Below, piece by piece: positions 5,389 through 5,406 of a stretch of DNA of 6,102 bases (position 1 is its first letter; every line of letters begins with the position of its first letter). The notes under the pieces are model-generated. The model was not told the origin of the DNA and made no database searches. It saw nothing but the letters and a program-made list of their open reading frames with translations. Made by a program: the position numbers and the translations under genes. The DNA is taken from the IMG/VR virus record IMGVR_UViG_2617270976_000019; one strand, 5' to 3'. This stretch comes from a virus. Its lineage: Duplodnaviria > Heunggongvirae > Uroviricota > Caudoviricetes.

Positions 5389-5406
5389 TGTACCGTTATT
5401 CACACA
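5389..5406 (-). promoter_or_regulatory. TGT-N12-ACA dyad (TGTGTGAATAACGGTACA on the minus strand); candidate Ogr/Delta-responsive late promoter element upstream of gpE
   Basis: The P2/P4 late-promoter activator site is recalled as TGT-N12-ACA centred near -55. This dyad lies about 80-95 bp upstream of the gpE ATG in the invertase-gpE spacer. No convincing -10 hexamer was identified, and chance occurrence in 142 bp is a few percent. Confidence 0.3.

Follow-up and report, generated by a model that had tools for sequence, protein, structure and literature searches.

The stretch of DNA analysed here, referred to as the window, comprises 6,102 nucleotides and corresponds to the final 6102 bases of the NCBI draft contig JNQT01000047.1 (GCA_000704325.1), taken as their reverse complement; a Logan assembly of run SRR1186598 contains this sequence too. 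All of its genes lie on the minus strand, on which the features described below are also given unless otherwise stated. In the direction of transcription, the first gene is that of a Gin/Hin-type DNA invertase (5455..6021), recognized by its Pfam Resolvase and HTH_7 domains and by the annotation of the related phage Cartapus; this upstream neighbour lies outside the promoter discussed here. It is followed by a non-coding spacer of 142 bp (5313..5454), by an open reading frame (ORF) of 71 codons (5097..5312), and by the genes for the tape measure protein gpT (1893..4970), for gpU (1411..1896; Pfam Phage_P2_GpU, E = 6.7e-44) and for gpD (314..1414; Pfam Phage_GPD). The last gene, ogr (27..245; Pfam Ogr_Delta, PF04606, E = 9e-21), codes for the cognate late activator, a protein of 72 aa. 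The encoded Ogr is intact and keeps the CX2CX22CX4C motif (C4, C7, C30 and C35); it is 56% identical to the Ogr of P2 and identical to that of Cartapus. The short spacer between D and ogr (246..313, minus strand) contains TTGATA...TGCAAT-like hexamers that may represent ogr's own promoter, one being annotated at this place in P2.

Among complete relatives, Escherichia phage Cartapus (NC_070909, Elveevirus) is the closest, and its comparison with the window by BLAST explains the unusual first ORF after the spacer. Window positions 1100..5261 align with Cartapus L001 1..4162 at 99.9% identity, and positions 5261..6102 with L001 6001..6842 at 100% over 842 bp, a block that covers the invertase gene and the spacer and extends 52 nt into the tail sheath gene FI. 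The two alignment blocks leave out 1839 bp of L001, which are absent from the window with respect to Cartapus; FI, FII and E are annotated in this interval. The missing DNA corresponds, in frame, to FI from codon 18 to its end, the whole of FII and the first 46 codons of E. The deletion junction lies at 5261..5262, as located both by the alignment with L001 and by the junction sequences; it reads ...TTCACATCCAT|GCCTTCGTTGAC... and shows 1 nt of microhomology. On its upstream side, the first 17 codons of FI (5262..5312) are 100% identical to the start of the Cartapus gene and encode MAQDYHHGVRVVEVNEG; on its downstream side, the 3' part of E (codons 47-100, 5097..5261) encodes MDVNAMM...LPTA. 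The ORF is thus an FI(1-17)::E(47-100) fusion, which matches the Pfam profile Phage_TAC_7 only at positions 36-78 of 79, that is, in the C-terminal half. The element that codes for the frameshifted product has survived the deletion: the T_TTT_TTG slippery site of the E/E+E' -1 frameshift (5136..5142) is retained in phase with the fusion ORF and has an annotated homologue in P2, and the E' extension in the -1 frame is still present (4963..5082; Pfam Phage_P2_GpE, mapped to the window from the gene called in L084).

These findings change the identity of the gene behind the spacer. The sequence-only reading had placed a candidate promoter directly upstream of gpE, and this description does not hold: the first gene is not a full-length E with its own start codon, and the ATG at 5312, preceded at 9 nt by the Shine-Dalgarno sequence AGGAGG (5322..5327, read from the sequence), is the start codon of FI. 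As both signals are those of FI, the spacer represents the native DNA between the invertase gene and FI, where P2 has its late promoter P_F. Any feature in the spacer stands beside E only because the 1839-bp deletion removed the genes for sheath and tube. As the element lacks both of these and encodes a shortened tail chaperone, the prophage is predicted to be tail-defective, the assembly of tails from its own genes being impossible. The 71-aa ORF should therefore not carry the gpE label, as a deletion has made it a sheath'-'chaperone fusion, and the case serves as a warning that gene adjacency in a window from a draft genome can stem from such an event.

The junction is rare. In an exact-protein look-up it was found only in GCA_000704325.1 and in the Logan assembly of run SRR1186598, and both assemblies may derive from the same isolate. 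It occurs in none of 5426 complete E. coli genomes, though 1030 of them carry the flanking sequences, and searches of species-representative genomes, viral contigs and metagenome contigs did not find it either. Four relatives with an identical gpD were inspected, and all four have the intact order invertase-FI-FII-E-T-U-D; ogr was called in two of them, and two of the four adjoin smpB. Given its absence from the genome, viral and metagenome collections searched, the FI'-'E junction evidently reflects a sporadic deletion rather than an architecture by design. The same rarity, with only an NCBI draft contig and a Logan assembly as sources, perhaps from a single isolate, and with a contig that stops at a repeat 80 nt beyond the invertase gene, might also be taken to mean that the junction was created during assembly, and that the real genome has an intact FI-FII-E with the promoter in front of a normal sheath gene. 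We consider this improbable, because no repeat that could mislead an assembler flanks the junction, where a single nucleotide of microhomology is found; moreover, the identical junction appears in two differently produced assemblies. In any case, an artefact would leave the identity of the promoter unchanged.

Another view of the same junction would be that the in-frame deletion is a retained configuration rather than mere decay, in which an Ogr-responsive P_F expresses only T, U, D and the truncated chaperone. Were this so, a P2-like phage or satellite resident in the same cell might have its tail components provided or titrated by the element, or a superinfecting relative might meet with interference. 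In favour of this view are the reading frame kept across the deletion and the intactness of promoter, ogr and T-U-D; nothing else supports it, and we regard it as very unlikely.

Within the spacer, positions 5389..5406 read TGTACCGTTATTCACACA on the plus strand and TGTGTGAATAACGGTACA on the minus strand, which is an exact match to TGT-N12-ACA; its extended form, T-TGT...ACA-A, spans 5388..5407. Both the location of the dyad and its agreement with the consensus had been correctly noted from the sequence alone. The centre of the dyad is 85.5 nt from the FI ATG. The bare pattern, taken alone, is at chance level and uninformative: the window contains two copies of TGT-N12-ACA, with 1.68 expected from shuffled sequences. 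The other exact copy, TGTCTGACCCTTTCGACA (3923..3940), is placed within the coding sequence of gpT, and Cartapus has the same copy; no promoter context was seen around it, and it fits the chance expectation.

What distinguishes the dyad at 5389..5406 from a chance occurrence is not the pattern count but its position and its conservation. We collected 80 IMG/VR loci whose encoded FI protein is at least 90% identical to that of Cartapus, and every one of them has a perfect TGT-N12-ACA whose centre lies 78.5-85.5 nt upstream of the FI ATG, where the background frequency in these loci would lead one to expect 0.007 matches per locus. The N12 spacer occurs in 37 different sequences among these 80 loci, and when the dyads are aligned, the T-TGT and ACA elements are invariant in all 62 distinct segments. 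The sample also shows with which of its neighbours the dyad is associated. No invertase homologue is present within 900 nt upstream of FI in 38 of the 80 loci, in many of which a GC-rich hairpin followed by a T-run takes the place of the invertase, and these loci keep both the dyad and its distance to FI; the dyad therefore travels with FI and not with the invertase.

Conservation of the motif fades with distance. At FI identities of 75% or less, it is either absent or has a spacing of 13 nt, so the argument from conservation covers the enterobacterial clade sampled and P2 itself. Upstream of FI in the distant P2-like phages ENT90 and those of Shewanella, Burkholderia and Mannheimia, no clear dyad was found. 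In the case of phiCTX (L091) and of the Ralstonia phage YO136_2 (L092), the sheath gene is preceded by TGT-N13-ACA, with the centre about 80-90 nt from the ATG, which suggests a different spacing preference of the activator outside the Enterobacteriaceae.

The proximity of the dyad to the invertase gene, whose stop codon is only 49 nt away, raises the question of whether it acts on behalf of that gene or of some other protein that binds DNA, be it in 3' regulation, termination or recombination, the more so as there is a weak hairpin (ACCGTCATT/AATAACGGT) across its left half. The loci described above, which keep the distance between the dyad and FI with no invertase nearby, are at odds with such a role, and the inverted repeats of the invertible segment are located elsewhere. 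There is little room left for this explanation, which we hold to be most unlikely. A terminator or hairpin of the invertase gene was also considered as what accounts for the dyad and was rejected: folding of the whole spacer is not significant (z = -0.9), and a T-run is lacking. As for the hairpin itself, it is imperfect and clade-specific, spans 5398..5422 on the minus strand with the loop TTGTGTG, and lies over the upstream half of the dyad.

Downstream of the dyad, the spacer displays a constant arrangement of weak core promoter elements. The -35 region conserves only a TG (5375..5376), at +30/+31 from the start of the dyad, in which the G is invariant and the T is present in 57 of the 62 homologous segments; the TG is found at the same offset in the P/O and V promoters of Cartapus. 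The -10-like hexamer CAACAT (5349..5354), at +52..+57, agrees with the sigma-70 -10 consensus at three of six positions, and NANNAT occupies the same place in 80 of 80 loci. The length between dyad and hexamer is constant, and the variation in the distance to the FI ATG across the 80 loci is confined to the leader. This combination of a constant spacing with a variable leader is the behaviour expected of a fixed geometry between an activator and a core promoter. In addition, the minus strand of 5200..5600 yielded no consensus sigma-70 promoter, as is expected for a promoter that depends on an activator. The conserved NANNAT, together with an A at +64 from the start of the dyad in 76 of the 80 loci, leads us to predict a transcription start at the A in position 5342 (plausible range 5339..5342), which would put the centre of the dyad at -55.5 and leave a leader of 30 nt. 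The transcription start, the binding of Ogr and the Ogr dependence of the predicted P_F are all deductions of this comparative kind. The layout that emerges, TTGTRY-N8-RYACAA, N12-TG, N20-NANNAT and a +1 at +64, is a sharper and testable one, and it belongs to prophages of E. coli and Klebsiella that form a very common group and whose P_F is left unannotated in current records.

Late promoters of the P2 family have an activator dyad centred about 55 nt upstream of the start, and the P4 promoters Psid and PLL, as well as the B-dependent promoters of phage 186, share the same activator-site consensus and the -55 placement. The four late promoters of P2 have been described as Ogr-dependent and as carrying TGT-N12-ACA (PMC3931495). 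For a direct comparison, we used as a reference the RefSeq record of P2, which annotates the activator sites and transcription starts of P_P, P_O, P_V and P_F. In this record the dyads read TGT-N12-CCA (P_F and P_O/P_P) and TGT-N12-CAA (P_V), and the annotated starts fall between +64 and +67, counted from the first T of each dyad. The TGT-N12-ACA consensus is therefore a loose one, since P_F and P_O of P2 itself fit it at only five of six positions, whereas the dyad in the window is perfect. The P2 P_O/P_P and P_V promoters have the activator-site consensus and the -55 placement in common with the window but control other operons.

Among the P2 promoters, the counterpart of the site is P_F. 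Both sites carry the same type of dyad upstream of the sheath gene FI and a weak -35 region; the dyads are centred about 55-57 nt upstream of the start, if the predicted one is taken for the window; and the operon ends, in both cases, with the gene of an Ogr_Delta zinc-finger activator. The distance from the dyad centre to the FI ATG is 82.5 nt in P2 and 85.5 nt in the window. The differences concern the surroundings: the upstream neighbour is fun(Z) in P2 and a DNA invertase in the window, and with respect to the P2 operon FI-FII-E-E'-T-U-D, of FI only 17 codons are left in the window, while FII and E's 5' half are gone. Beyond the dyad and the geometry, the two promoters have, by inspection, no obvious sequence similarity.

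Cartapus provides a second comparison, within the same phage type. Its 33 kb contain eight perfect TGT-N12-ACA dyads, three of which lie in its three late intergenic regions, P/O (3716), V (9817) and FI (15568). These three share TTGTGT-N8-RYACAA-N12-TG-N20-CAAC, as does the site in the window. The Cartapus region equivalent to P_F is followed by a complete FI-FII-E, deleted in the window, and the record annotates no promoter. In the Cartapus L003 record, the predicted +1 at positions 3669 and 9881 coincides with the A of annotated ATGs, those of gpV and of the large terminase gene, a coincidence that points to leaderless mRNAs or to misannotated starts; the P2 record likewise places the transcription start of V on the V start codon.

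In the light of these data, the notion that the dyad matches by chance and regulates nothing, which the sequence-only reading had left as an alternative, can be set aside. The count of two copies against 1.68 expected is what such a match would give; for a spacer of 142 bp the expectation is about 0.03 matches. However, the dyad keeps its place in 80 of 80 homologous loci despite divergent flanks and 37 different spacers, recurs at all three late intergenic regions of Cartapus and has a fixed spacing to the -10-like hexamer. We see almost no likelihood in a chance origin, which is rejected by this conservation of both position and sequence.

The most probable reading, to which we assign a probability of roughly 0.85, is that the dyad is the activator site of the native P_F late promoter of a P2-like (Elveevirus/Cartapus-type), tail-defective prophage. 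The locus brings together the dyad, a position at the head of a late operon, a cognate Ogr_Delta gene and a poor match to sigma-70, which are the features of a P2-family late promoter, and the motif also precedes the remaining late operons of this phage type, in Cartapus regions that correspond to DNA outside the window. By analogy with P2, the 72-aa zinc-finger Ogr encoded at 27..245 would bind TGT-N12-ACA at about -55.5 and would recruit RNA polymerase through contact with its alpha subunit. In P2, ogr mutations suppress rpoA109 (L290H), a mutation of RNA polymerase's alpha subunit (PMC11434276). The core promoter on which Ogr would act consists of the poor -35 region with the TG at 5376/5375 and of the -10-like CAACAT at 5354..5349, and transcription would begin near 5342 on the minus strand. 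Such a promoter would now drive the 71-aa FI'-'E fusion and its frameshift product, and then T, U and D. No intrinsic terminator was found between the invertase gene and FI, so that some read-through transcription independent of the dyad could occur as well.

Of the two origins proposed earlier for the site, that of a retained P_F-type promoter is the one supported by the comparative evidence, the dyad being at its native place between the invertase gene and the FI ATG; relocation is contradicted by this same placement and by the complete identity of 5261..6102 to Cartapus. Independent transcription of E-T-U-D, which had been suggested as its consequence, is an effect of the deletion, as the separation from the sheath and tube genes exists only because those genes have been lost. 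The stronger version, in which the site is a dedicated or relocated promoter of gpE-T-U-D that evolved for expression independent of the sheath and tube genes, is hardly credible: the first ORF after the promoter does end as gpE, with T, U and D behind it, but its ATG, its Shine-Dalgarno sequence and its first 17 codons are those of FI, in 842 bp identical to the Cartapus invertase-FI region, its E portion is without the first 46 codons, and the junction is in none of the 5426 complete E. coli genomes or the species-representative, viral and metagenome collections.

Read as the native P_F, the site is an orthologue of a textbook activator-dependent phage late promoter, and as such it represents known biology with little that is new. 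A last observation concerns the upstream edge of the window. The right inverted repeat of the tail-fibre invertible segment is 75 nt long, and its first 26 nt make up positions 6077..6102; in Cartapus the arms are located at 13341-13415 and 14823-14897. The contigs from NCBI and from Logan both stop at this repeat, which suggests that the assemblies break at the invertible repeat.
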